A stretch of DNA of 64,000 nt. Origin: Chloroflexota bacterium. GTDB taxonomy: Bacteria; Chloroflexota; Anaerolineae; Anaerolineales; VGOW01. Location: NCBI GenBank assembly GCA_016213135.1, contig JACRBQ010000028.1:71284-135283 (forward strand). Reading direction: 5' to 3'. Numbering within the stretch: position 1 is the stretch's first letter; the number at the start of each line of letters is the position of its first letter. Below are positions 7,720-46,220 of the stretch, in pieces. The notes under the pieces were generated by a model. It saw only the letters and a list, made by a program, of their open reading frames with translations. It was not told the DNA's origin and searched no databases. The position numbers and the translations under genes are program-made.

Positions 7720-8370
7720 TCACTCTTCCGCTATCAGTCGCTTAATCACGTCGCCCGTTTCCAAAATCGTCGCCACCTGAAAATCCACGGCCGGGTCGAG
7801 GCTTGGGCCGTCGCCCACCAGCACCGTGGTCATGCCCAGCGCCTGCGCGGGGCGCAGGTTGCGCACGCTGTCCTCTATAAGCACGCACGAGGCGGCGGGG
7901 GCGGCGACGCGCTGCAACAGGATTTCGTAAGCCCGGGGCAGGGGCTTGTTTTCGAATTCCATAGCCCGGATGTCGATGATGGCGCTGAAATGGCGGGCGA
8001 TGCCGAGCATGCCCAGCACCCGGCTCGTGTGGCCGGTGTCGGAGTTGGTGAAGATGGCTTTGGGGCAGGGCAGGGTGGCAAGCATCGAGTCGAGGGCCGG
8101 ATCGGGCGCGATGTAGCGCGTGAGGTCAAGGTCGTGCACGTAGGCAAGGTAGTCGTCGGCATCCACGCCGGGGTAGTGGCGCATGAGGCCCCGCAGGGTG
8201 GTGCCATAGTCGTGGAAGTATTGCCCGCGCAGAGCTTCCACCTGCGCCGGGTCGAGGCCAATTCGCTCGGTCATAAAACGGATGATGCGCTGGCCGATTG
8301 CTTCCCACAGGCCGTTGTTGCCGGGGTATAGTGTGTCGTCGAGATCGAAGATAAGCTGTCGGATGGCCAC
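7720..8370 (-). CDS. HAD-superfamily hydrolase, pyrimidine 5'-nucleotidase-like (subfamily IA)
   Basis: Track ORF 7720..8643 trimmed to GTG at 8370 (VAIRQLIFDLDDTLY...), so the DxDxT nucleophile motif sits at the usual N-terminal position. Later motifs FTNS and IEDSVRN. Confidence 0.75.
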   Translation of the reverse strand: MAIRQLIFDLDDTLYPGNNGLWEAIGQRIIRFMTERIGLDPAQVEALRGQYFHDYGTTLRGLMRHYPGVDADDYLAYVHDLDLTRYIAPDPALDSMLATLPCPKAIFTNSDTGHTSRVLGMLGIARHFSAIIDIRAMEFENKPLPRAYEILLQRVAAPAASCVLIEDSVRNLRPAQALGMTTVLVGDGPSLDPAVDFQVATILETGDVIKRLIAEE

Positions 8371-8457
8371 AGGGCGATGATTATAAGGCAAAACAGGCAA
8401 TCCATAGACTCTTTCCCAAGCGAGTGGTATGTTATACGACCAAAGGGAAGGACTCGT

Positions 8458-9564
8458 ATGCAACCGAAAGCACAGCGCGGCTATTTCCTGTTGGCCGATA
8501 TCTCCGGCTATTCCACTTACGTGGCGCAAACAGAATTGGAGCATGCGCAGGAAGTGCTGACCGAGTTGCTGGAGTTGCTCGTCGGGCGCCTCACGAGCAA
8601 GCTCATTCTTTCCAAGCTCGAAGGCGATGCCGTATTTGTTCATTTACCCGAAGAGCAGCTTGCGCGCGGCGACACGCTGCTGGATTTGATCGATGCCACT
8701 TACGGGGCGTTCCGCGACCGGGTGGAAGGTATTCGCCGCCGCACCACGTGCGAGTGCCGCGCCTGTCAGGCCATTCCCCTGCTCGATCTGAAATTCATCG
8801 TGCATCATGGCGACTACATCACCCAGAACGTTTCGGGCATTCGCGAGTTGCTGGGCACGGATGTCAACCTCGTCCACCGGCTGCTGAAGAATCATGTCGC
8901 CGAGGCTACCGGCTGGCGCAGCTACGCGCTGTTCAGCCGACAGTCGCTCACCCGACTGGGCTTGACCCTTGCCAATCTGCACGAGGCTACGGAGACGTAT
9001 GATCTCGGCGCCGTGGACACTTTGGCCCTGGACCTGCTGCCGCGCTACCGGGAAATGGTGGACGCCCGGCAGGTGGTGGTAGGCCCGGATGAGTGCGACG
9101 CACGGGTGACGCACGACTTCCGCGCCCCGCCAATGGCCGTGTGGGACTGGCTTAATTCGCCGGCGAAGCGTGTCCTGTGGGACGACCCTCGGCCGGCGCG
9201 TTCGGTAGCGGCCTTGCCACGGCCGGACGGGCGCATAGGCCCCGGGGCGCGCAACCACTGTGTCCACGGCAAACAGGAAGTGTGGGAAACCGTGCTCGAC
9301 TGGCGGCCGTTTGACTACTTCACACTTCTGGTGCATACCGGCACAGCCAAACTAACGCAAATGTGCGAACTGGCGTCCCTGCCCAATGGCGGCACGCGCC
9401 TGAACGTGTTGTACCACTTGCACTCGCCGTTGCCTCGCCTCGTGGTTAGGCCGATAGTGCGAATGGTGGTGCGGCAGAGGAAAATTGCTGAAAGCTTCGT
9501 CACCCTGGCGCGCATGATAGAGGGGACATTGGCCTCGGCACCCGAGGATGGGGATGCAAGGTAA
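8458..9564 (+). CDS. DUF2652-type (class III nucleotidyl-cyclase-like) domain fused to a C-terminal SRPBCC/START-like domain, paralog 1
   Basis: Start moved to ATG 8458, after AAGGGAAGGA. Cyclase-like motifs LLADISGYS, KLEGDAVFV, GTDVNLVHRL; Cys cluster TCECRACQ. C-terminal half (PPMAVWDWLNSPAKRVLW...) resembles SRPBCC. Confidence 0.75.
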   Translation: MQPKAQRGYFLLADISGYSTYVAQTELEHAQEVLTELLELLVGRLTSKLILSKLEGDAVFVHLPEEQLARGDTLLDLIDATYGAFRDRVEGIRRRTTCECRACQAIPLLDLKFIVHHGDYITQNVSGIRELLGTDVNLVHRLLKNHVAEATGWRSYALFSRQSLTRLGLTLANLHEATETYDLGAVDTLALDLLPRYREMVDARQVVVGPDECDARVTHDFRAPPMAVWDWLNSPAKRVLWDDPRPARSVAALPRPDGRIGPGARNHCVHGKQEVWETVLDWRPFDYFTLLVHTGTAKLTQMCELASLPNGGTRLNVLYHLHSPLPRLVVRPIVRMVVRQRKIAESFVTLARMIEGTLASAPEDGDAR

Positions 9565-9577
9565 ACTGCGGGGACAC

Positions 9578-10133
9578 ATGGACACCAAAATTCAACACGG
9601 TTACCTCGTTCTGGCGGATATTTCGGGCTACACCTCGTTTGTGGCGGCCACCGAACTGGAACACGCCCACGACATTCTCACCGAACTGCTGGAGTTGGTC
9701 CTCGGCCAACTCACGCCGACGCTCACACTCTCCAAGCTGGAAGGCGATGCGGTATTTGCCTATGCCCCCGAGGCCCGCCTCCCGCGTGGCGAGACGGTGC
9801 TGGAATTGGTCGAGGCTACCTATGTGGTCTTCCGTGACCGGCAGGAAGCCATTCGCCGCCGGACGACGTGCCAGTGCAACGCCTGCCGTTCCATCCCGGC
9901 CCTCGATCTCAAATTCATCGTTCACCATGGCGACTTCATCGCCCAGCGCGTGGCGGGCATTCACGAACTCGTCGGCTCCGATGTCAACCTGATCCACCGG
10001 CTGTCGAAGAACCACGTGGCCGAGGCCACCGGCTGGCGGGCCTACGCCATGTTTACCAAGGCCGGGCTGGCGCACATGGGTCTGCGCCCGGAGGGTATGC
10101 ACGAGCAGGCCGAAGCCTATGAGCATCTGGGCG
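9578..10133 (+). repeat. Direct repeat copy A (~556 bp), near-identical to 10741-11296
   Basis: Side-by-side reading shows only scattered single-base differences (e.g. caacacggt vs caacatggt; gagttggtc vs gagctggtc). Protein differs at about 3 of ~185 positions. Confidence 0.85.
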
Positions 10134-10699
10134 ATGTTCAAACGCACAGTATGGATTTGCGGGCGCGTTATCAAGAATTGACCGACGCGCGGCGCATCGT
10201 GGTGGCGGCAGAAGAGGCCGACCTAATCCTTACGCAGGAATTTTCTGCGCCGCCGCCCGCCGTCTGGGAGTGGCTGAATGATCCAAAGAGTCGCAACAAG
10301 TGGGCGCTTGATACAGTTTGGACGGTGGGCGGACGCCCGAACGGGCGCACCGGCATTGGGGCGCAAAACCACTGCGCGCATGGCAAAGGCAGCAGCTACA
10401 CCGAAACAGTTCTCGATTGGCGTCCCTTTGAATACGTGACCACGGAAGCGCGCGAGCACGGCTTTCCGCCGATGATTATTATCGAGACATTCCGCTTTGA
10501 GCCAACGCCGGACGGCAAAGGGACGCGCGTGACCGACTACCTTCGGATGCCCACGCCGTTGTCGCAGTGGCGGAGCGTCAGCCGCGCGTTGTGCAAGTTC
10601 ATGCTTGTTGGCATGATGAAATACGATCAAGTCTTGTCCGGCGCCGCGCGTTTGTTGGACGAGTCTGCGCAGGACATGGAGTCCGACGCTCGGCTTTGA
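9578..10699 (+). CDS. DUF2652-type cyclase-like plus SRPBCC fusion protein, paralog 2
   Basis: Start at ATG 9578 (MDTKIQHGYLVLADISGYT...), 14 nt after the paralog 1 stop. Same motif set (KLEGDAVFA, GSDVNLIHRL, TCQCNACR). Confidence 0.75.
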   Translation: MDTKIQHGYLVLADISGYTSFVAATELEHAHDILTELLELVLGQLTPTLTLSKLEGDAVFAYAPEARLPRGETVLELVEATYVVFRDRQEAIRRRTTCQCNACRSIPALDLKFIVHHGDFIAQRVAGIHELVGSDVNLIHRLSKNHVAEATGWRAYAMFTKAGLAHMGLRPEGMHEQAEAYEHLGDVQTHSMDLRARYQELTDARRIVVAAEEADLILTQEFSAPPPAVWEWLNDPKSRNKWALDTVWTVGGRPNGRTGIGAQNHCAHGKGSSYTETVLDWRPFEYVTTEAREHGFPPMIIIETFRFEPTPDGKGTRVTDYLRMPTPLSQWRSVSRALCKFMLVGMMKYDQVLSGAARLLDESAQDMESDARL

Positions 10700-10740
10700 A
10701 AGACGGCATGACCGGCGGCGCAGGCAGTGGGATGAGGCTT

Positions 10741-11296
10741 ATGGACACCAAAATTCAACATGGTTACCTCGTTCTGGCGGATATTTCGGGCTACACCTCG
10801 TTTGTGGCGGCCACCGAACTGGAACACGCCCACGACATTCTCACCGAACTGCTGGAGCTGGTCCTCGGCCAACTCACGCCGACGCTCACACTCTCCAAGC
10901 TGGAAGGCGATGCGGTATTTGTCTATGCCCCCGAGGCCCGCCTCCCGCGTGGCGAGACGGTGCTGGAATTGGTCGAGGCTACCTATGTGGCCTTCCGCGA
11001 CCGGCAGGAAGCCATTCGCCGCCGGACGACGTGCCAGTGCAACGCCTGCCGCTCCATCCCGGCCCTCGATCTCAAATTCATCGTTCACCATGGCGACTTC
11101 ATCGCCCAGCGCGTGGCGGGCATTCACGAACTCGTCGGCTCCGATGTCAACCTGATCCACCGGCTATCGAAGAACCACGTGGCCGAGGCCACCGGCTGGC
11201 GGGCCTACGCCATGTTTACCAAGGCCGGGCTGGCGCACATGGGTCTGCGCCCGGAGGGCATGCACGAGCAGACCGAAGCCTATGAGCATCTGGGGC
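10741..11296 (+). repeat. Direct repeat copy B (~556 bp), near-identical to 9578-10133
   Basis: See copy A. Identity starts exactly at the ATG and decays after ...tatgagcatctgg. Confidence 0.85.
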
Positions 11297-11838
11297 AGGT
11301 GCAAACCTACAGCCTCGACCTGCGCGCCCGCTATGCGGCGCTGGTGGACGCGCGGCGCGTAGTGGTCGCGCCCGAAGACGCGCACAACGTGCTGACGACC
11401 GACGTGCCCGCGCCCATGGCCGAGGTATGGAGTCTGTTGAACGAACCGCGGAATCGCGAAGAGTGGGAAGGAATCCACATCGTCCCGGTTTCCAAAGTCG
11501 GGGGCCGTACCGGCGCGGGTGCGCGCAGCCACTGCATGCACGGGGACAACGTTTCAATGGTCGAGACCGTGCTGGACTGGCGGCCCTTCGACTATTTCAC
11601 GGTGGAGCAAAACAGCCGCGGCATCCCCGGCATGATCATCAACATTACCTACAAGCTCACCCAAACGCCCACCGGCACACGCACCGAACGGCGCGAGCGT
11701 TGGATGGGATCAGGCTTCGGGCCGCTGTATAAGTTTCTCTGCTACTGGATGGACGTGATATTCGGGATAAAAAAGGGGTTTGAGCAGCGCCTCAAACAGT
11801 TAGCCGCTCAGGCGGACAAGCCCGAAACCGGAGGCTGA
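10741..11838 (+). CDS. DUF2652-type cyclase-like plus SRPBCC fusion protein, paralog 3
   Basis: Start at ATG 10741 (MDTKIQHGYLVLADISGYT...). The track start at 10567 overlaps paralog 2. N-terminal ~185 aa almost identical to paralog 2; C-terminal half diverged. Confidence 0.75.
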   Translation: MDTKIQHGYLVLADISGYTSFVAATELEHAHDILTELLELVLGQLTPTLTLSKLEGDAVFVYAPEARLPRGETVLELVEATYVAFRDRQEAIRRRTTCQCNACRSIPALDLKFIVHHGDFIAQRVAGIHELVGSDVNLIHRLSKNHVAEATGWRAYAMFTKAGLAHMGLRPEGMHEQTEAYEHLGQVQTYSLDLRARYAALVDARRVVVAPEDAHNVLTTDVPAPMAEVWSLLNEPRNREEWEGIHIVPVSKVGGRTGAGARSHCMHGDNVSMVETVLDWRPFDYFTVEQNSRGIPGMIINITYKLTQTPTGTRTERRERWMGSGFGPLYKFLCYWMDVIFGIKKGFEQRLKQLAAQADKPETGG

Positions 11839-12635: not shown

Positions 12636-13613
12636 TCACAGCAAAGCCAACAGCCTGGGCAACACGTCTTTGGGCTGCCCCACCACCGCTGCATCGGCCG
12701 CGTTGAAGATGGGCGCGCTGGCGTCCGGGTGAATCGCCACCACAAACTTCGCGCCTTCGGTTCCGGCGCGGTGCAGCGTGTCGCCCCAAATGCCGGCGGC
12801 AATGTAAACGTCCGGCGCAATCTCCGTGCCTATCACGCCCACAATATCCTCTTTGCCAATCCAACCCGAGTCGAATGCGGATCGATCCCCGGCGAAGTGC
12901 GCCCCGAGTTTCGCCGCGAGTAGCCTGGCGACTTCGACGGTGGCCGCATCGTTGCCCCCGCGACCCACGGCCACCACCCGGGCCGCTTTGTGCAGCGGCG
13001 TGGCCGGAGGCGTATGCGCGGCGGGACCTGTGTCCCGGCTGGGATGCTCCGGTTCCGATGCGGCCACTGGCTCCACCTCGCCCGTCCGGCCCGAGTCGCG
13101 CGCCGGCATGGGGAAAATCTCCGGGCGCACGGTGAAAATCTGCGGCTTGGCCGTCACGGCGCTGTCAAGATAATGCGCCCCATCGTAAACCGGGTGCGAG
13201 GCCACAACCTCCCGCGCCGCTTCATCCAGCCGCAGGGCAATGCAATTGAGCACCACGCCACCGTGCAACCGGCCCGCTAGCCGCGCCGCCACCTCGTTGC
13301 CCGTCTCGTCGGCGGCAAGGAACACAAATTCCGGTTTGGCATTGGCGAACAATGCGGCCAGTGTGGCTACTGCCGCGTCCGCGCCGGCGGCGGCCAGCGG
13401 ATGAACGCGGTCGGCGCCGAGGGCAATAGCCTCGCCCGAGTCGGCGGGGCCGACGTAATGCAAATACGCGCCGAGCGAATCGGCCATGCGGCGGGCCTCG
13501 CCCAACAACGGGGCGGCGCGCGCCGTGTTGCCCAGGTCCACTACCCACAGGTCGCGATACTCGTCGATTTCAATTGCTTCGCCCATCAGGGCTTGGAGGT
13601 CGTTGAGGTTCAT
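12636..13613 (-). CDS. etfA: Electron transfer flavoprotein alpha subunit
   Basis: 325 aa; C-terminal FAD-binding block (...YIAAGIWGDTLHRAGTEGAKFVVAIHPDASAPIFNAADAAVVG...). 4-nt overlap with etfB. Confidence 0.85.
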   Translation of the reverse strand: MNLNDLQALMGEAIEIDEYRDLWVVDLGNTARAAPLLGEARRMADSLGAYLHYVGPADSGEAIALGADRVHPLAAAGADAAVATLAALFANAKPEFVFLAADETGNEVAARLAGRLHGGVVLNCIALRLDEAAREVVASHPVYDGAHYLDSAVTAKPQIFTVRPEIFPMPARDSGRTGEVEPVAASEPEHPSRDTGPAAHTPPATPLHKAARVVAVGRGGNDAATVEVARLLAAKLGAHFAGDRSAFDSGWIGKEDIVGVIGTEIAPDVYIAAGIWGDTLHRAGTEGAKFVVAIHPDASAPIFNAADAAVVGQPKDVLPRLLALL

Positions 13614-14365
13614 GGAGTCATTCTCTCTGCGATTTCTTCCACCGTCATCTGCTTGCCAAATTCGCGCTCCGGCGGGAACGACTGGCCGCGCTCGACCACT
13701 GCCGGTTGCAGCGCCGAGTCGTCGAGGCCCAGGTCGGCGGCAGTCATAATCTCCACTGCTTCCGGGTCGCGATACATTTCAATGATCGCGCCGCCGTGCG
13801 GGTAGCGCGGGGTCGGGCCGCTGCGCGTGACGGTGACCACGGCGGGCAGGTCGGCTTCGACGCCGTTGTAGGCGCGTTGCGTTGCGTCGCGCACGTCTCG
13901 GCGGACGATGCGAACGACCGCGCCTTCCAACGCGCACTGCACCGCGTTACCCAGAAAAGCCATATTCACCATCTCGGCCAACTGTGGCCCCACGGCTTCG
14001 CCCGTGTCCAGCGCGCTGTCGCCGGTGAGGATCAAATCCACATCACCCAGGCTGTCGCACAGAGCTTCGTAGAAACGTCCCGCAGGGGCCGCAACGTCCT
14101 CCTTAATCAAAATCGCCCGATCCGCGCCCAGGGCGCGGGCTTCGCGCAGGGCGTCTTCGGTGCGGGCCGGGCCGACGGCAGCGGCCACCACCTCCGCGCC
14201 CGTGGCGTCTTTGATCTGCAGGGCTGCTTCCAGCGCCCGCTTGTCTGCCGGGTTGATCATGTATTCTTCGCGGTTCACAAACACCTTGCCCGCCTTGCGG
14301 TTCACCAGCATCCCGGCGGGGTCGAGGAGTTGTCTGAGGAGTACGAGGAGTCTCATGGCACGCAT
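13610..14365 (-). CDS. etfB: Electron transfer flavoprotein beta subunit
   Basis: Track ORF 13610..14422 trimmed to MRAMRLLVLLRQLLDP...; 14356 is an alternative start. Family-typical N-terminal strand and overall length. Confidence 0.8.
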   Translation of the reverse strand: MRAMRLLVLLRQLLDPAGMLVNRKAGKVFVNREEYMINPADKRALEAALQIKDATGAEVVAAAVGPARTEDALREARALGADRAILIKEDVAAPAGRFYEALCDSLGDVDLILTGDSALDTGEAVGPQLAEMVNMAFLGNAVQCALEGAVVRIVRRDVRDATQRAYNGVEADLPAVVTVTRSGPTPRYPHGGAIIEMYRDPEAVEIMTAADLGLDDSALQPAVVERGQSFPPEREFGKQMTVEEIAERMTP

Positions 14366-14422
14366 ACCCTTTGTTTCTTCGACAAGGCGACTCGATGGCA
14401 AGGTGATACGGTGATCGCTCAT

Positions 14423-14464
14423 TGAAACACTGTCACCTTGTCACCCGTTCACCGCTTCATGCCT
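14423..14464. repeat. Heptamer/octamer-periodic intergenic element (gtcacc-type) between an acyl-CoA dehydrogenase gene and etfB
   Basis: cattgaaacactgtcaccttgtcacccgttcaccgcttcatgcc. The complement carries five TGA (gtgaag, atgaag, gtgaac, gtgaca, gtgaca). Confidence 0.6.
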
Positions 14465-15631
14465 TCACGGTCTTATTCGCACGCCCACGCCCTGCATCAG
14501 CTCCGAGGCAATCACAATCCGCTGTATCTCGTTGGTGCCTTCGAAGATTTCCGAAATGCGGGCGTCGCGGAAGCCGCGTTCGATGGTGAAATCGCGGCTC
14601 AACCCCAGCGCGCCGTGGATTTGCAACGCGCGGTCGATGCAGCGCGAGGCGGTTTCGGAGCCGAGCAGTTTGCACATGCCCGCCTCTTTGATGAACGGGC
14701 GCCCGTTGTCTATGAGCCACGCGGTGCGATACACCAGCGCCCGCAGGGCCTCGATCTCGGCGGCCATGTCGGCAATCATGAATTGAATGGATTGCATGTG
14801 GGCTATCGGCCGGCCAAACTGCTGGCGCGTGCGCGCCCAACGGATGGACGCCTCCAGCGAGGCTTGCGCCCCGCCGAGCGTGGCCGCGCCCAGCGACGCG
14901 CGGCCAATGTCGAGGGCTTTCATGAACGTCACAAAACCCAATCCTATCTGTCCCACCACATTCTCGCGGGGCACGCGCACCTCGTCGAAATTGAGCAGCG
15001 AGGTGGGCGATCCGTGCAAGCCCATTTTGCTTTCGGGCTTGCCGGGCGTGTACCCGGCCCACTCGCGCTCCACGGCAAACACCGTGGCCCCGCCGCGCGC
15101 GCCCAGCGCCGGGTCGGTGAGGGCCAACACGTTGATCACGTCGGCGATGGGGCCGTTGGTGATCCACATCTTCTGCCCGTCGAGGATATACGAGTCGCCT
15201 TCGAGGGTGGCGCGCATCTGAATTCCGGCGGCGTCAGACCCGGCGTTCGGTTCGGTGAGAGCAAAGGCGGCAATCTTCCTGCCGCTGCACAGGTCGGGCA
15301 TGTATTTTTGCTGGAGGGCCTTGGAGCCGTCGAGGTACAGGCTCATGACGCCAATGCCGATGTGCGCGCCGATGATGGTAGCCACCGACGGGCACACGCG
15401 GTTCAGCTCCTCCATCATGATGCAGTAGCCCAACTCGCCCGCGCCCATGCCTCCGTATTCGCGGGGGAACGGCACGCCGAAGAAGCCCACGTCGCCCATG
15501 CGGCGGATCAACTCGGGCGGAACGACGCTGTCTTCGTCAATTTTTTTGGCGACGGGCGCAATTTCCTCGGTAATGAACTCGCGCAGCATCCGGCGCAGGG
15601 CATTGTATTCGGGGGGGAGGTCGTAGTTCAT
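14465..15631 (-). CDS. Acyl-CoA dehydrogenase
   Basis: 388 aa; ACAD signatures (AFALTEPNAGSDA, QIHGALG, IFEGTNEIQR). Confidence 0.9.
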   Translation of the reverse strand: MNYDLPPEYNALRRMLREFITEEIAPVAKKIDEDSVVPPELIRRMGDVGFFGVPFPREYGGMGAGELGYCIMMEELNRVCPSVATIIGAHIGIGVMSLYLDGSKALQQKYMPDLCSGRKIAAFALTEPNAGSDAAGIQMRATLEGDSYILDGQKMWITNGPIADVINVLALTDPALGARGGATVFAVEREWAGYTPGKPESKMGLHGSPTSLLNFDEVRVPRENVVGQIGLGFVTFMKALDIGRASLGAATLGGAQASLEASIRWARTRQQFGRPIAHMQSIQFMIADMAAEIEALRALVYRTAWLIDNGRPFIKEAGMCKLLGSETASRCIDRALQIHGALGLSRDFTIERGFRDARISEIFEGTNEIQRIVIASELMQGVGVRIRP

Positions 15632-15636
15632 TTTTA

Positions 15637-15702
15637 GTGGTCAATGGTCAGTGACCGGTGGCCAGTGATTTCTGCTCACCGTCCACTGGCCACTATCCAC
15701 TG
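15637..15702. repeat. Heptamer-periodic intergenic element with an internal 10-bp inverted repeat
   Basis: tggtcaa tggtcag tgaccgg tggccag tgatttc tgctcac cgtccac tggccac tatccac. GTGGCCAGTG (15658-15667) pairs with CACTGGCCAC (15684-15693). Confidence 0.8.
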
Positions 15703-16866
15703 TCATGGCTGGATGCGGAGTCCCTTTTCCTCGAACGCCGCCCGCGCGACGACGTATCGCTGAATTTCATCCGTGCCGCCGAGCAGGCGCAGGGCGCGCA
15801 CGTCGCGATAGTAGCGCGAGATGGCGTATTCGTCCGAGAAGCCGTAGCCGCCGTGCACTTGCAGCATTTTATTGGCGGCATCTTTGGCCACGCGCCCGCC
15901 GAAGTACTTGGCCATCGACGCGGCCCGGCCAAATTCCTGACCGCTGCCTGCCAGCCACGCAGCATGGCGCACCAGCCCGCGCAGGGCTTCAATGTCGGTG
16001 GCGGTGTCGGCCACGTAGTTTTGCATGGCCTGCTTGTGGGCAATCTGCACGCCGAACTGTTTGCGCTCGGCGGCGAAGGTCACCCCGAGAGCCAGTGCGG
16101 TTTGGGCCGCGCCCAGGGCCACGGCGGCCAGCGTGAGCCGCACGCGGTCAAAGGCTCGCACTACAATCGCCCAGCCCTCGTTCTCGCCGTTGAGGCGGTT
16201 GGCTTCGGGCACAAAGCAATCTTCAAGATATACGGTGCGAATGTCCATGCCGCGCAGGCCGAGAGTCTTTTCGCGGTAGCCGATCATCACGCCGGGGGCG
16301 TCATTCGCCACCACAAACGCGGAGATGCCCTTGTGCCGCGCTCCGGGGTGGGTGCTGGCGAACACCACCATCACCCCGCCGAGGCCGGCGTTGCTCACCC
16401 AATTCTTCGTGCCGTTCAGCCGGTAGCCGCCCTCAACTTTGTCGGCCCGGGTCGTCAACGAACCGGGGTCGGACCCGGCGTCCGGCTCGGTGAGGGCAAA
16501 CGCCCCAATGACCTCCCCGGCGGCCATGGCCGGCAGATGCTTCTGCTTCTGCTCCTCGGTGCCCACGTCCAAAATCGACATGGCCGCGAGGCTGGTGTGG
16601 ATGGCGATGGTGACGGCGGTGGAGAGGCAGTGCTTGCCCAACTCTTCGGCCAGCAGGGTGTAGCTCAGCCAGTCGATGCCTACGCCGCCGTAAGCCTCGG
16701 GAATGGGTGCGCCGAAGAAGCCCTGCGCCGCCGCCTTTTTGTACAGGTCGAGCGGCGGCTCCTCGCTGCGATCCACGTGCTCGGCGATCTTGGCGACCTC
16801 CTTTTCGGCAAAGTCGCGGAACAAATCGCGAAACATGGTTTGTTCTTCGGTCAGAGAAAAGTCCAT
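15703..16866 (-). CDS. Acyl-CoA dehydrogenase
   Basis: 387 aa; ACAD signatures (AFALTEPDAGSDP, QVHGGYGF, LLGGTDEIQR). Confidence 0.9.
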   Translation of the reverse strand: MDFSLTEEQTMFRDLFRDFAEKEVAKIAEHVDRSEEPPLDLYKKAAAQGFFGAPIPEAYGGVGIDWLSYTLLAEELGKHCLSTAVTIAIHTSLAAMSILDVGTEEQKQKHLPAMAAGEVIGAFALTEPDAGSDPGSLTTRADKVEGGYRLNGTKNWVSNAGLGGVMVVFASTHPGARHKGISAFVVANDAPGVMIGYREKTLGLRGMDIRTVYLEDCFVPEANRLNGENEGWAIVVRAFDRVRLTLAAVALGAAQTALALGVTFAAERKQFGVQIAHKQAMQNYVADTATDIEALRGLVRHAAWLAGSGQEFGRAASMAKYFGGRVAKDAANKMLQVHGGYGFSDEYAISRYYRDVRALRLLGGTDEIQRYVVARAAFEEKGLRIQP

Positions 16867-44710: not shown

Positions 44711-44887
44711 GAGGTGGCAGGGGATGAAAACCAGACATGGTGATGGTATTGAGGCACTCTCAGAAGAAATGGAGAGCAACGGGTCTGCCACACCTAAATT
44801 CAGGCGTCATCCCTTGACCCTACCAGCCGATGGGCGGAGGTTGCCGCTATGAACACAGGCTTTTTCTGAATGAAAGGAGAACCCAAA

Positions 44888-45328
44888 ATGATAAAGTATC
44901 GTAGTGAGATAGCTATCAATCGGCCAGTGGACCAAGTCTTTCGTTTCGTAACCGATGTCCAGAAGTATTCGCAATGGACGGATATGGGCGAGACCAGGCT
45001 CGTTTCCGATGGCCCGCTCGGAGTCGGATCGAAAATGCAAACAGTTATAAAAATGGGCCCTTTGAAAGTGAACATGACTTTTGAAGTAACTGAATACGAA
45101 GTAAACCGAAGGATGTCATTCATTGGTACATCCGCAGGGCCTCTGGAATGGGATGCTACTTTCACTGTCGAGCCCAAAGATGCGTCCACTACGCATATGA
45201 CTAGCTCTGGCGAATTGCGTCTGAAAGGGCTGTGGAGATTGGCCGAGCCGCTCATGGCGGGGGAGGTGAAGAGCGGAGAAGCCAAGGAGCTGGAGAGGCT
45301 AAAGAACCTTCTTGAGACCACTGCATAG
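44888..45328 (+). CDS. SRPBCC (START/polyketide-cyclase-like) family protein
   Basis: Start at ATG 44888, after AAAGGAGA (MIKYRSEIAINRPVDQVFRFVTDVQKYSQW...). GC content is visibly lower than the neighbours. Confidence 0.75.
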   Translation: MIKYRSEIAINRPVDQVFRFVTDVQKYSQWTDMGETRLVSDGPLGVGSKMQTVIKMGPLKVNMTFEVTEYEVNRRMSFIGTSAGPLEWDATFTVEPKDASTTHMTSSGELRLKGLWRLAEPLMAGEVKSGEAKELERLKNLLETTA

Positions 45329-45389
45329 AGCCTGCGTTGTGAGGGGACAAATAGCCGCGCATGCCAAAGCGGCGATCTAAGGAGTTCCT

Positions 45390-46220
45390 ATGCCAAACCC
45401 GCTCCCGCCCAAAGATCCCTATCTGAGATACCTAAAAGTCAACTCGGCAGATGAACTGTGGCAAAAGGTCCTCACCGAGGGCGAACCCATAGATAAGCAC
45501 CTGCATCACCTTTTTGGCCTGCTCCCCTCTAATCCGCGGTGCAAGTATTGTCATGGCCCCTTCACTGGCATTGGCGGCGCGTTCATGCGCTTTCTCGGCG
45601 TTCGCCAATCGGCCAAGAATCCTAAATTTTGTAATGCTTGCGATCTCTTCACTGGTAAGTATCGGGGCGGCGCAGAGGTAGAGCTGACGATGCTGTTCGT
45701 GGATGTGCGCGGCTCGACCACGCTGGCCGAGAAAATGAACGCCACCGAGTTCAGCCACTTGATGAATCGCTTCTATGACGCCGCGATAAATGTCCTCGTG
45801 CATGCCGATGCTTTTATTGATAAACTGGTTGGGGATGAGGTCACGGCCCTGTTCATTCCCGGCTTCGCGGGCAAGGCGCATGCCCGCCGGGCGGTGGACG
45901 CCGGACAGGCCTTGTTGCGGGTCACGGGTTATGGGGAGCCGGGTGGTCCCTGGGTCCCGATCGGAGTCGGGGTCCACACCGGCTCGGCCTACGTCGGTTC
46001 TATTGTTGGCGCAAGCGGAGCCTCCTCCGATTTCACCGCGCTGGGCGACAACGTGAACATAACCGCGCGTCTGGCTTCCAAAGCCGGCTCGGGCGAAGTC
46101 CTAATCAGCGACGCCACGTGCAATGCGGCGCGGATAGAAACTGGGGGATTGGAAAAGCGTGAACTGGAACTAAAGGGCAAAAGTGAGCCGGTGAGCGTGA
46201 GAGTATTGCATGCAGGATGA
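45390..46220 (+). CDS. Class III adenylate/guanylate cyclase with an N-terminal Cys-rich (zinc-ribbon-like) segment
   Basis: 276 aa; CKYCHGP...CNAC, then the cyclase core (LTMLFVDVRGSTTLAE, KLVGDEVTALF, LGDNVNITARLAS). Confidence 0.85.
   Translation: MPNPLPPKDPYLRYLKVNSADELWQKVLTEGEPIDKHLHHLFGLLPSNPRCKYCHGPFTGIGGAFMRFLGVRQSAKNPKFCNACDLFTGKYRGGAEVELTMLFVDVRGSTTLAEKMNATEFSHLMNRFYDAAINVLVHADAFIDKLVGDEVTALFIPGFAGKAHARRAVDAGQALLRVTGYGEPGGPWVPIGVGVHTGSAYVGSIVGASGASSDFTALGDNVNITARLASKAGSGEVLISDATCNAARIETGGLEKRELELKGKSEPVSVRVLHAG

Follow-up and report, generated by a model that had tools for sequence, protein, structure and literature searches.

A tandem array of DUF2652-SRPBCC fusion genes in Chloroflexota as candidate sensor-linked class III cyclases

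In 2016 Ramakrishnan et al. (Biol Direct 11:27; PMC4886424) predicted, from profile comparison and threading with AlignHUSH and Phyre2, that the proteins of family DUF2652 form a separate subfamily of the class III nucleotidyl cyclases, and sorted their catalytic residues into the classes Asp, Asp; Lys, Glu or Glu, Lys; and Arg. The same paper reported a Bradyrhizobium protein, U1IMS0 (385 amino acids, aa), in which DUF2652 is joined to a C-terminal polyketide cyclase domain, and listed in its Table 2 that Mycobacterium tuberculosis Rv2561 lies near Rv2564 and Rv2565, which bind cyclic nucleotide monophosphates (cNMPs). Major, Embley and Williams (2017, Genome Biol Evol 9:480; PMC5381601) reported a different architecture, the NTT-HEAT-cNBD fusion, giving no functional data, and speculated that cyclic AMP from some adenylate cyclase might tune the transporter; we found no later characterisation of NTT-HEAT-cNBD proteins in the literature, and members of this group are known from cyanobacteria, Chlamydia and oomycetes. 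Here we analyse three tandem genes, copies 1 to 3, that fuse DUF2652 to an SRPBCC domain in a stretch of 64,000 nucleotides (nt) from an Anaerolineales genome of the Chloroflexota (assembly GCA_016213135.1, contig JACRBQ010000028.1, positions 71,284 to 135,283), hereafter the window. The cyclase relationship and one fusion of DUF2652 with a polyketide cyclase domain were already published in 2016, and our core claim is not new; what we add is the linkage to NTT-HEAT-cNBD genes, recurrent arrays with conserved paralogue pairs, a gene conversion tract and invariant Cys/His motifs.

As an explanation of the whole, we favour with moderate confidence an operon of paralogous signalling enzymes, each built from a cyclase and an SRPBCC sensor. 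The first-pass annotation of the window, made from the sequence, had described three co-directional genes of one architecture, and their boundaries and common design stood up to closer analysis. Three consecutive plus-strand open reading frames (ORFs) in the ORF list of the window end at stops at 9564, 10699 and 11838, and their start codons at 8458, 9578 and 10741 are fixed by homologue alignments that open at a conserved MxxKxQHGY:

8458-9564, + strand: copy 1 gene, 368 aa; DUF2652 at about aa 1-192 (nt 8458-9033), SRPBCC at about aa 215-359 (nt 9100-9534)
9578-10699, + strand: copy 2 gene, 373 aa; DUF2652 at about aa 1-193 (nt 9578-10156), SRPBCC at about aa 216-372 (nt 10223-10693)
10741-11838, + strand: copy 3 gene, 365 aa; DUF2652 at about aa 1-193 (nt 10741-11319), SRPBCC at about aa 216-365 (nt 11386-11835)

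These are real genes and not chance ORFs: over 3,500 clusters at the 90% identity level show this architecture (database search at E up to 1e-5), 2,801 clusters at the 50% level, out of 1.84 billion representatives, match the isolated N-terminal domain (1,652 of them at E up to 1e-10), and at least 582 genome stretches, with one genome taken per species, encode a relative.

All three N-terminal halves match Pfam DUF2652 (PF10851; gathering threshold 22.1 bits), with 96.3 bits for copy 1 (E 1.6e-27), 98.8 bits for copy 2 (E 2.6e-28) and 102 bits for copy 3 (E 2.7e-29), and a Pfam scan found the same domain in all 53 aligned relatives. That this half resembles a class III cyclase, as had been proposed from its motifs, is borne out by structure prediction. 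AlphaFold2 monomer models of copy 2 (pLDDT 91.9, pTM 0.86) and copy 1 (pLDDT 89.1, pTM 0.85) show the element order β1-α1-α2-β2-β3-α3-β4-β5-α4, and when both were compared with the Protein Data Bank (PDB) using Foldseek, class III cyclases filled ranks 1-42 or more, at E 1e-8 to 1e-9, probability 1.00 and a TM-score on target of up to 0.76. The matches include OaPAC, bPAC, Spirulina CyaC, Cya2, Rv1900c, CyaB and mammalian adenylate cyclase; for copy 2 they score E 1e-8, and for copy 1 they comprise OaPAC 4yut (E 1.3e-9) as well as CyaC, Cya2 and Rv1900c. No GGDEF, Cas10 or polymerase structure occurs among the top 40+ structural neighbours. We also considered and rejected a GGDEF diguanylate cyclase, since the GG[DE]EF motif is absent, Pfam finds no GGDEF domain and no GGDEF structure stands in the top 50 Foldseek matches.

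Profile-profile alignment points the same way. With shallow profiles (Neff ~2) hhalign aligned DUF2652 to canonical cyclases at E 0.2, and with diversified profiles, built from 310 DUF2652 domains, cluster representatives among them, and from 21 canonical cyclase domains of the window, its orthologues and fetched loci, it gave P 9e-4 over 150 aligned columns. Taken together, models and profiles support a class III cyclase fold for the DUF2652 half: the comparison with known cyclases was positive by structure and by profile-profile alignment, and negative with the Pfam Guanylate_cyc model itself. The window offers its own reference for the motifs in an ordinary cyclase at 45390-46220, a Pfam Guanylate_cyc protein with FVDVRGST, KLVGDEVTA and GDNVNITARL. 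The first-pass annotation had lined up three motifs of the array with these, and the unbiased hhalign alignment reproduced the pairing: D14 in ADISGYT stands against the Asp of FVDVRGST, K53 and D57 in KLEGD against KLVGD, VHHGD against VHTGS, and the Thr, Asn and Arg of DFTALGDNVNITARL are matched by E130, N137 and R141. E130, which lies just upstream of G[ST]DVNL[IV]HRL, aligns with the Thr of DFTALG, the second base-specifying position. All the motifs quoted were found in every copy, the three cyclase-like ones (the first in the form LADISGY[ST]) at aa 12-18, 53-60 and 133-142:

8491-8511 (copy 1), 9611-9631 (copy 2) and 10774-10794 (copy 3), + strand: LADISGY, aa 12-18, with D14 as predicted metal-binding Asp A
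8614-8637 (copy 1), 9734-9757 (copy 2) and 10897-10920 (copy 3), + strand: KLEGDAVF, aa 53-60, with K53 predicted to specify the base and D57 as predicted metal-binding Asp B
8854-8883 (copy 1), 9974-10003 (copy 2, as GSDVNLIHRL) and 11137-11166 (copy 3), + strand: G[ST]DVNL[IV]HRL, aa 133-142, with N137 and R141 as predicted transition-state residues

Conservation was read from 203 relatives, drawn from genome loci and database matches and 40-100% identical. Whether the two metal-binding Asp residues are kept across the family had been named as a check, and both D14 and D57 are present in 203/203, with the other catalytic positions at 93-99%: R141 in 201/203, K53 and E130 in 194/203 each, R94 in 193/203 and N137 in 189/203. 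C100, C103, H29, H116, K112 and K144 are likewise kept in all 203. Where K53 changes to Glu together with a change of E130 to Lys, as it does in three lineages (the DUF2652 genes at ~8001 of loci L029, L065 and L068), the reciprocal swap reads in the alignment as the signature of an interacting specificity pair and may mark a switch in nucleotide specificity; the combination is the one classed as 'E,K' in 2016 (PMC4886424). Two copies that stand second in their arrays, L060:9140-10204 and L057:9095-10153, have lost K53, E130 and N137 and have kept both metal Asp residues and R141, a pattern that suggests, by analogy, the metal-binding C1-like half of heterodimeric cyclases.

The C-terminal ~170 aa had been likened to SRPBCC/START-type ligand pockets, and this is supported by hidden Markov model (HMM) in copies 2 and 3 and by fold in copies 1 and 2. 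Polyketide_cyc2 (PF10604, SRPBCC; gathering threshold 27.4 bits) matched above threshold in copy 2 (41.4 bits, E 2.3e-10; AHSA1, PF08327, followed at E 4e-4) and in copy 3 (39.4 bits, E 9e-10), and below it, with 19.9 bits, in copy 1. Despite this score the C-terminal half of copy 1 is clearly related to that of copy 2 by BLASTP (36% identity, E 1e-28), and its model matches SRPBCC structures; between copies 3 and 2 the identity is 47% (E 2e-34). In Foldseek the C-terminal halves of the models match AHSA1-type SRPBCC proteins, namely 1xuv and 3q63 for copy 2 (E 2e-6) and 1z94 for copy 1 (E 1.4e-6), and the order of secondary structure in both fits the helix-grip fold (β-α-α-β6-α). No NCBIfam model was found for the three proteins.

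The sensor halves are also where the copies part company, as the first-pass annotation had noted: they are 36-47% identical among the three copies, against 65-98% for the catalytic halves. Across the 203 relatives the cyclase domain has a mean conservation of 0.74 and the SRPBCC core one of 0.59, and the C-terminal helix, which varies more than any other segment, scores 0.42. The C-terminal helix of the SRPBCC fold lines the ligand pocket. A 'ligand-gated' activity and a 'diversified input', as the annotation had suggested, are inferences.

Within the variable half lies a polar core that is nearly invariant, made up of N264, H265, C266, H268, G269, D280, W281, P283, F284 and Y286, with H265 and C266 in 201/203 relatives each, H268 in 196/203 and D280 in 199/203; mean conservation reaches 0.86 over aa 261-270 compared with the 0.42 of the C-terminal helix. 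Judged by its sequence, this shared core (N-H-C-x-H-G and L-D-W-R-P-F) probably belongs to a part of the function common to all copies. An invariant feature of the N-terminal half is the T-C-x-C-x-x-C cluster that had been noticed after the cyclase-like motifs, and that we found in all copies at aa 96-103. C98 is kept in 202/203 relatives, C100 and C103 in 203/203, and in two standalone DUF2652 proteins without SRPBCC C98 and C103 are kept in both and C100 in one. These elements lie as follows:

8743-8766 (copy 1), 9863-9886 (copy 2) and 11026-11049 (copy 3), + strand: TTCxCxxC, aa 96-103, an insertion in the α3-β4 loop
9256-9270 (copy 1), 10370-10384 (copy 2) and 11530-11544 (copy 3), + strand: H-C-x-H-G on an SRPBCC strand, part of the polar core
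10412-10429 (copy 2), + strand: L-D-W-R-P-F of the SRPBCC domain, forming the polar core together with H-C-x-H-G

In the hhalign alignment the canonical cyclases have a gap where CxCxxC stands, and we therefore place the cluster as an insertion in the α3-β4 loop. Going by fold topology, β4 should begin beside the end of β1, which would put CxCxxC and the invariant K112 at the mouth of the active site. We suspect a zinc, Fe-S or redox site: zinc in a structural role, an Fe-S centre and a redox switch would each be plausible at that position.

The strongest available argument that DUF2652 makes a cyclic nucleotide comes from the neighbourhoods of its relatives, where a cyclase-like gene is translationally coupled to a cNMP receptor. 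We surveyed 80 loci by clustering ORFs from a crude longest-ORF caller, which makes the counts approximate. In 17 of the 49 loci that extend at least 3.2 kb downstream, an NTT-HEAT-cNBD protein is encoded by the following same-strand gene, at a gap of -8 to +316 bp and often with overlapping stop and start codons. This partner is ~1,000 aa long and resembles TLC/NTT and MFS proteins. Its first ~410 residues contain 8-11 hydrophobic segments; it also has HEAT repeats and, at its C-terminus, a cNMP_binding domain (Pfam E 2e-17) whose phosphate-binding cassette, G-E-M-[AS]-[LI]...R-x-A-[ST], is at least 90% conserved in 19 examples; partner genes lie, for instance, at L002:4953-8000, L013:9095-12094 and L011:3264-6386. 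Any cNBD ORF at all occurs in 20 of the 80 loci, and in 17 of these it directly adjoins the DUF2652 gene. The closest genomic relatives of copy 2 include the partner-linked loci L002, L004, L005, L011 and L013, and the link of the present locus to a cNMP receptor is by homology only. In the literature searched we found no published report of an operon link between DUF2652-SRPBCC and NTT-HEAT-cNBD genes.

Fusions of this design make up most of the database matches. All of the best 120 clusters contain DUF2652 and nearly all also PF10604, the named cluster matches come from metagenome-assembled genomes of Chloroflexi or Anaerolineales, and the JGI annotation of relatives reads 'YndB with AHSA1/START domain'. 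The relatives are mostly Anaerolineales, with scattered occurrences in Gammaproteobacteria, Desulfobacteraceae, Bacteroidota, Acidobacteriota, Actinomycetes and Armatimonadota. Tandem arrays recur in Anaerolineales; 2-4 copies were seen in 16 of 80 loci, and at L086:1572-8297 (GCA_973467895.1) six DUF2652 genes stand in a row, among them a stand-alone 'mycobacterial-type' copy of 282 aa, with Ile at the position of Asn137, and a frameshifted copy, which indicates birth-and-death evolution. When two-gene arrays of different genomes were placed in a rough neighbour-joining tree, their first copies grouped together and so did their second copies, which makes at least one array duplication old and conserved. 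Members of one array share 38-79% identity in the N-terminal half and 27-51% in the C-terminal half.

Building on the observed architecture, fold, residue conservation and gene linkage in relatives, we infer catalysis, dimerisation, a product and ligand gating along the following lines. The three genes would form a small operon of paralogous soluble signalling enzymes in which DUF2652 acts as a divergent class III nucleotidyl-cyclase catalytic domain that, by analogy with known cyclases, works as a head-to-tail dimer. D14 and D57 would hold the Mg or Mn ions, K53 and E130 would read the base, and N137 and R141, probably with K112 and R94, would position the ribose and phosphates, so that a nucleoside triphosphate (NTP) would be converted to a 3',5'-cyclic NMP and pyrophosphate. 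The C-terminal SRPBCC domain, of the AHSA1/YndB-like helix-grip type, may serve as a regulatory module that gates this activity by a small ligand, and the three copies probably answer to different small ligands, because the pocket-lining C-terminal helix is the most variable part; the invariant polar core (H-C-x-H and D-W-R-P-F) might relay the signal or hold a common cofactor. In many related Chloroflexi the cNMP would most likely be read by the cNBD of the downstream NTT-HEAT-cNBD membrane protein. Because the window holds no such partner, a receiver in this genome would have to lie elsewhere.

Several observations weigh against this explanation. Sequence comparison and HMMs fail to link DUF2652 to canonical cyclases: BLASTP of copy 2 against the window cyclase (45390-46220) gave nothing significant, PDB sequence searches with phmmer (single sequence) and hmmsearch (53-member profile) returned no cyclase and only spurious designed-repeat and weak SRPBCC matches, and none of the 53 members matched Pfam Guanylate_cyc (PF00211) at E up to 10. 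The canonical base-specifying pairs are Lys with Asp or Thr for ATP and Glu with Cys, Ser or Gly for GTP; of the Lys53/Glu130 pair found here the Lys is canonical and the Glu is not, and the pair allows no choice among ATP, GTP and a pyrimidine NTP. The conserved Lys of the β7-β8 'KGK' also appears from the sequence to be replaced by E-H-L-G, and the CxCxxC insertion by the predicted active site has no counterpart in known cyclases. On the sensor side the invariant His/Cys/His/Asp core would suit a site for a metal or cofactor no less than a pocket for a hydrophobic ligand. Neither an NTT-HEAT-cNBD homologue nor any cNBD ORF was found in the 64-kb window, and about two-thirds of the related loci are also without the partner. 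Finally, in keeping with the earlier statement that the family has no experimentally defined function, our literature search found no experimental study or assay of any DUF2652 protein, including Rv2561/Rv2562, or of an SRPBCC-cyclase.

Some of these points would be accounted for if the same fold and metal site performed other chemistry. The proteins could be nucleotidyl-transferases or lyases whose product is not a 3',5'-cNMP (a 2',3'-cyclic, linear or dinucleotide product, for example), or could act on a non-nucleotide phosphoester substrate, with a metal bound by CxCxxC joining the reaction. Such a role would suit the non-canonical specificity pair, the invariant Cys cluster in the α3-β4 loop, which from the models and fold topology should lie beside the β1 phosphate-binding loop, the distance of DUF2652 from canonical cyclases, too great for HMM detection, and the seeming loss, on a sequence reading, of the canonical γ-phosphate Lys. 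However, the top 40+ structural neighbours are all class III adenylate or guanylate cyclases, with no GGDEF, Cas10 or polymerase among them, the cyclase transition-state Asn and Arg are kept, and the recurrent downstream partner carries a classical cNMP-binding cassette; we regard other chemistry as unlikely, though worth keeping in view. Alternatively the activity might be that of a cyclase gated not by a hydrophobic ligand but by redox state, metal or gas, with the occupancy or oxidation of Zn, Fe or Fe-S acting as the switch at CxCxxC, possibly with H29, H116 or H140, and at the H-C-x-H/D of the SRPBCC domain, whose pocket would then be a metal site. There is a precedent in the Rieske oxygenases, in which a catalytic domain of SRPBCC fold carries mononuclear iron. 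Four Cys and several His are essentially invariant in the 203 sequences while typical ligand-pocket positions vary, the Cys cluster persists in standalone DUF2652 proteins, and the family is concentrated in Anaerolineales, many of them anaerobic. Against this, no AHSA1-type SRPBCC structure among the Foldseek matches is described as a metalloprotein and the three loop Cys could be a mere structural zinc site, and we think gating of this kind distinctly unlikely.

We give least credence, as highly improbable, to a catalytically dead domain that would do no more than bind nucleotide or dimerise and leave the work to the SRPBCC half as a lipid or polyketide carrier or enzyme. No turnover by a DUF2652 protein was found in the literature, pseudo-cyclase domains are known in the class, and the copies at L060:9140-10204 and L057:9095-10153 have lost three catalytic positions; but metal Asp residues in 203/203, a near-invariant R141 and a covarying specificity pair are difficult to account for unless the domain is catalytic, conservation is higher in the N-terminal domain than in the SRPBCC half, and even the degenerate copies keep their metal Asp residues, as does the C1-like half of heterodimeric cyclases. 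Operation as a sensor-gated cyclase is the reading we retain. A bolder version of it, which we put forward as a speculation that is unlikely as a whole, has the paralogues homo- and heterodimerising through their near-identical cyclase domains, with one active site integrating two SRPBCC inputs, gene conversion keeping the dimerising module of copies 2 and 3 identical as their sensor halves drift apart, the Cys/His sites acting as a redox or metal switch, and the product being the ligand of NTT-HEAT-cNBD. If this were true, it would define a new pathway by which cNMPs control nucleotide transport in Chloroflexi, one possibly shared by the NTT-HEAT-cNBD proteins of cyanobacteria, chlamydiae and oomycetes, and CxCxxC with HCxH would be a redox/metal switch absent from any known cyclase.

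As a family DUF2652 is moderately large, with ~2,800 clusters at the 50% identity level; that its members extend class III, those of Mycobacterium tuberculosis included, was predicted in 2016. Its Chloroflexi members are good material for a test, with a full set of catalytic residues, confident models and a candidate receptor in relatives. If they are active cyclases, SRPBCC would be a new class of sensor in cyclic-nucleotide signalling and the NTT-HEAT-cNBD transporters would gain a cognate cyclase; the operon link makes both the product of DUF2652 and the control of these transporters testable.

The one unusual local feature of the array is a probable domain-precise gene conversion between copies 2 and 3, which would have left these tracts:

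9578-10131, + strand: homogenised tract of copy 2, from the ATG to codon 185, the cyclase-like module
10741-11294, + strand: homogenised tract of copy 3, the partner of 9578-10131

The two tracts differ by 9 mismatches in 554 nt (1.6%; 98.4% identity), 6 of them synonymous and 3 not, and mismatch rises to 40% over the 146 nt that follow, while the 5' flanks of the two copies are unrelated. The tract ends at codon 185, which coincides with the boundary of the cyclase module, and other arrays, with N-terminal halves 38-79% identical, have no such homogenised tract. This is a mosaic made by gene conversion or a domain swap, and its simplest reading is a recent gene conversion, perhaps still continuing, that affected the catalytic module alone. 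The copy-3 protein of a second public assembly (P0004) matches ours at 100% over the SRPBCC half and has six aa differences, all in the tract, two of which match copy 2; the pattern points to conversion still under way in the population or else to a mixed consensus in that short-read assembly. An assembly artefact behind the 98%-identical tracts was considered and is unlikely, given nine real differences, sharp in-frame boundaries and the presence of both genes in the second assembly (P0001, P0004).

Around the array there are housekeeping genes, and those on either side of it lie on the opposite strand:

7720-8400, - strand: pyrimidine 5'-nucleotidase gene (TIGR01993, 190 bits; cut-off 142.9), divergent from copy 1
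8401-8457, no strand: divergent intergenic region between the 5'-nucleotidase gene and copy 1, holding the purine-rich AAGGGAAGGA

The purine-rich segment, found by reading 8401-8457, lies ~7 nt 5' of the ATG of copy 1 and is, by its sequence, a likely ribosome-binding site; no consensus sigma-70 promoter was found in that region. The three genes most likely form one operon, because the gaps between them are 13 bp (copies 1 and 2) and 41 bp (copies 2 and 3) and no plus-strand terminator was found between them. Consensus promoters and terminators around the array occur at the level of shuffled sequence, and a regulatory RNA, promoter or terminator was rejected on this ground and for want of an Rfam match. 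The array has the same GC content as the rest of the window. We also rejected the pyrimidine 5'-nucleotidase as a functional partner: its adjacency recurs in only 1 of 80 loci (L053), which looks like local synteny. The downstream neighbour is a minus-strand RNA 2'-O-methyltransferase of the SpoU/TrmH superfamily, with RlmB as its best NCBIfam match, below cut-off. Near it, at 12636-16866 on the minus strand, an EtfA/EtfB-like pair is followed by two acyl-CoA dehydrogenase-like genes, which from their translations, judged by eye, we take to be a fatty-acid or amino-acid oxidation cluster adjoining the array.

The ordinary cyclase at 45390-46220, which has an N-terminal CxxC...CxxC, zinc-ribbon-like segment, lies 61 bp downstream of a stand-alone SRPBCC gene (44870-45328; Polyketide_cyc2 E 7e-16), the pair standing in a low-GC stretch (53.9% against ~63%). 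We considered whether this might be the domain pairing of the fusion in trans and rejected it: two orthologues of this cyclase have no such neighbour, the SRPBCC protein shows no sequence relationship to the fused SRPBCC domains, and the adjacency at 44870-46220 is probably a coincidence.

Set beside known systems, the three proteins differ from PycC of Pycsar, a group of divergent class III-type cyclases that make non-canonical cNMPs (cyclic CMP and cyclic UMP, cCMP/cUMP, in anti-phage defence). None of them matched the PADLOC PycC models (cut-off E 0.01), which do detect the ordinary cyclase of the window at E 2e-13, and no Pycsar-type effector genes lie nearby; a Pycsar-type defence cyclase was rejected on these grounds. 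The downstream neighbour seen in relatives has the NTT-HEAT-cNBD architecture of Major et al. 2017 (PMC5381601), who named no cognate cyclase; the window has no such gene.

With the AHSA1/YndB SRPBCC proteins (PF08327, PF10604, COG3832; 1xuv MM0500, 3q63 MLL2253, 1z94 CV1439 and CalU16 2luz) the C-terminal halves share the helix-grip fold, at Foldseek E ~2e-6 and a TM-score on target of 0.66-0.77. AHSA1/YndB proteins are stand-alone and ~150 aa long, whereas here the domain is fused to a putative enzyme and has the invariant N-H-C-x-H-G / L-D-W-R-P-F core.

Canonical soluble class III cyclases, among them the BLUF-linked OaPAC and bPAC (4yus, 5mbk), CyaC (1wc0), Cya2 (2w01) and Rv1900c (1ybu), show the same fold as the DUF2652 models, with a TM-score on target of 0.65-0.76, and have equivalent metal Asp, Lys, Asn and Arg residues; like them the DUF2652 proteins are soluble and combine one sensor with one cyclase domain. 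They differ in being only 11-18% identical to the canonical enzymes and missed by the Guanylate_cyc HMM, in having a C-terminal SRPBCC sensor, Glu as second specificity residue and CxCxxC before β4, and in showing no evident signalling helix or coiled-coil linker, unlike canonical sensor-cyclases.

Closest of all is the DUF2652 set of 2016, with which the array shares the Pfam family (96-102 bits) and the residue set Asp, Asp / Lys, Glu / Arg, the 'AC/GC' type, and within it U1IMS0, which has the same two-domain fusion and is likewise soluble. That fusion was a single exception among the 53 proteins of the 2016 paper, whereas it is the dominant architecture among our matches. The Chloroflexi members also retain Asn at the transition-state position, which is Ile in the mycobacterial type, and they stand out by their tandem arrays and their linkage to NTT-HEAT-cNBD genes, in contrast to the M. 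tuberculosis set of 2016 with its Rv2564/Rv2565-type neighbours.

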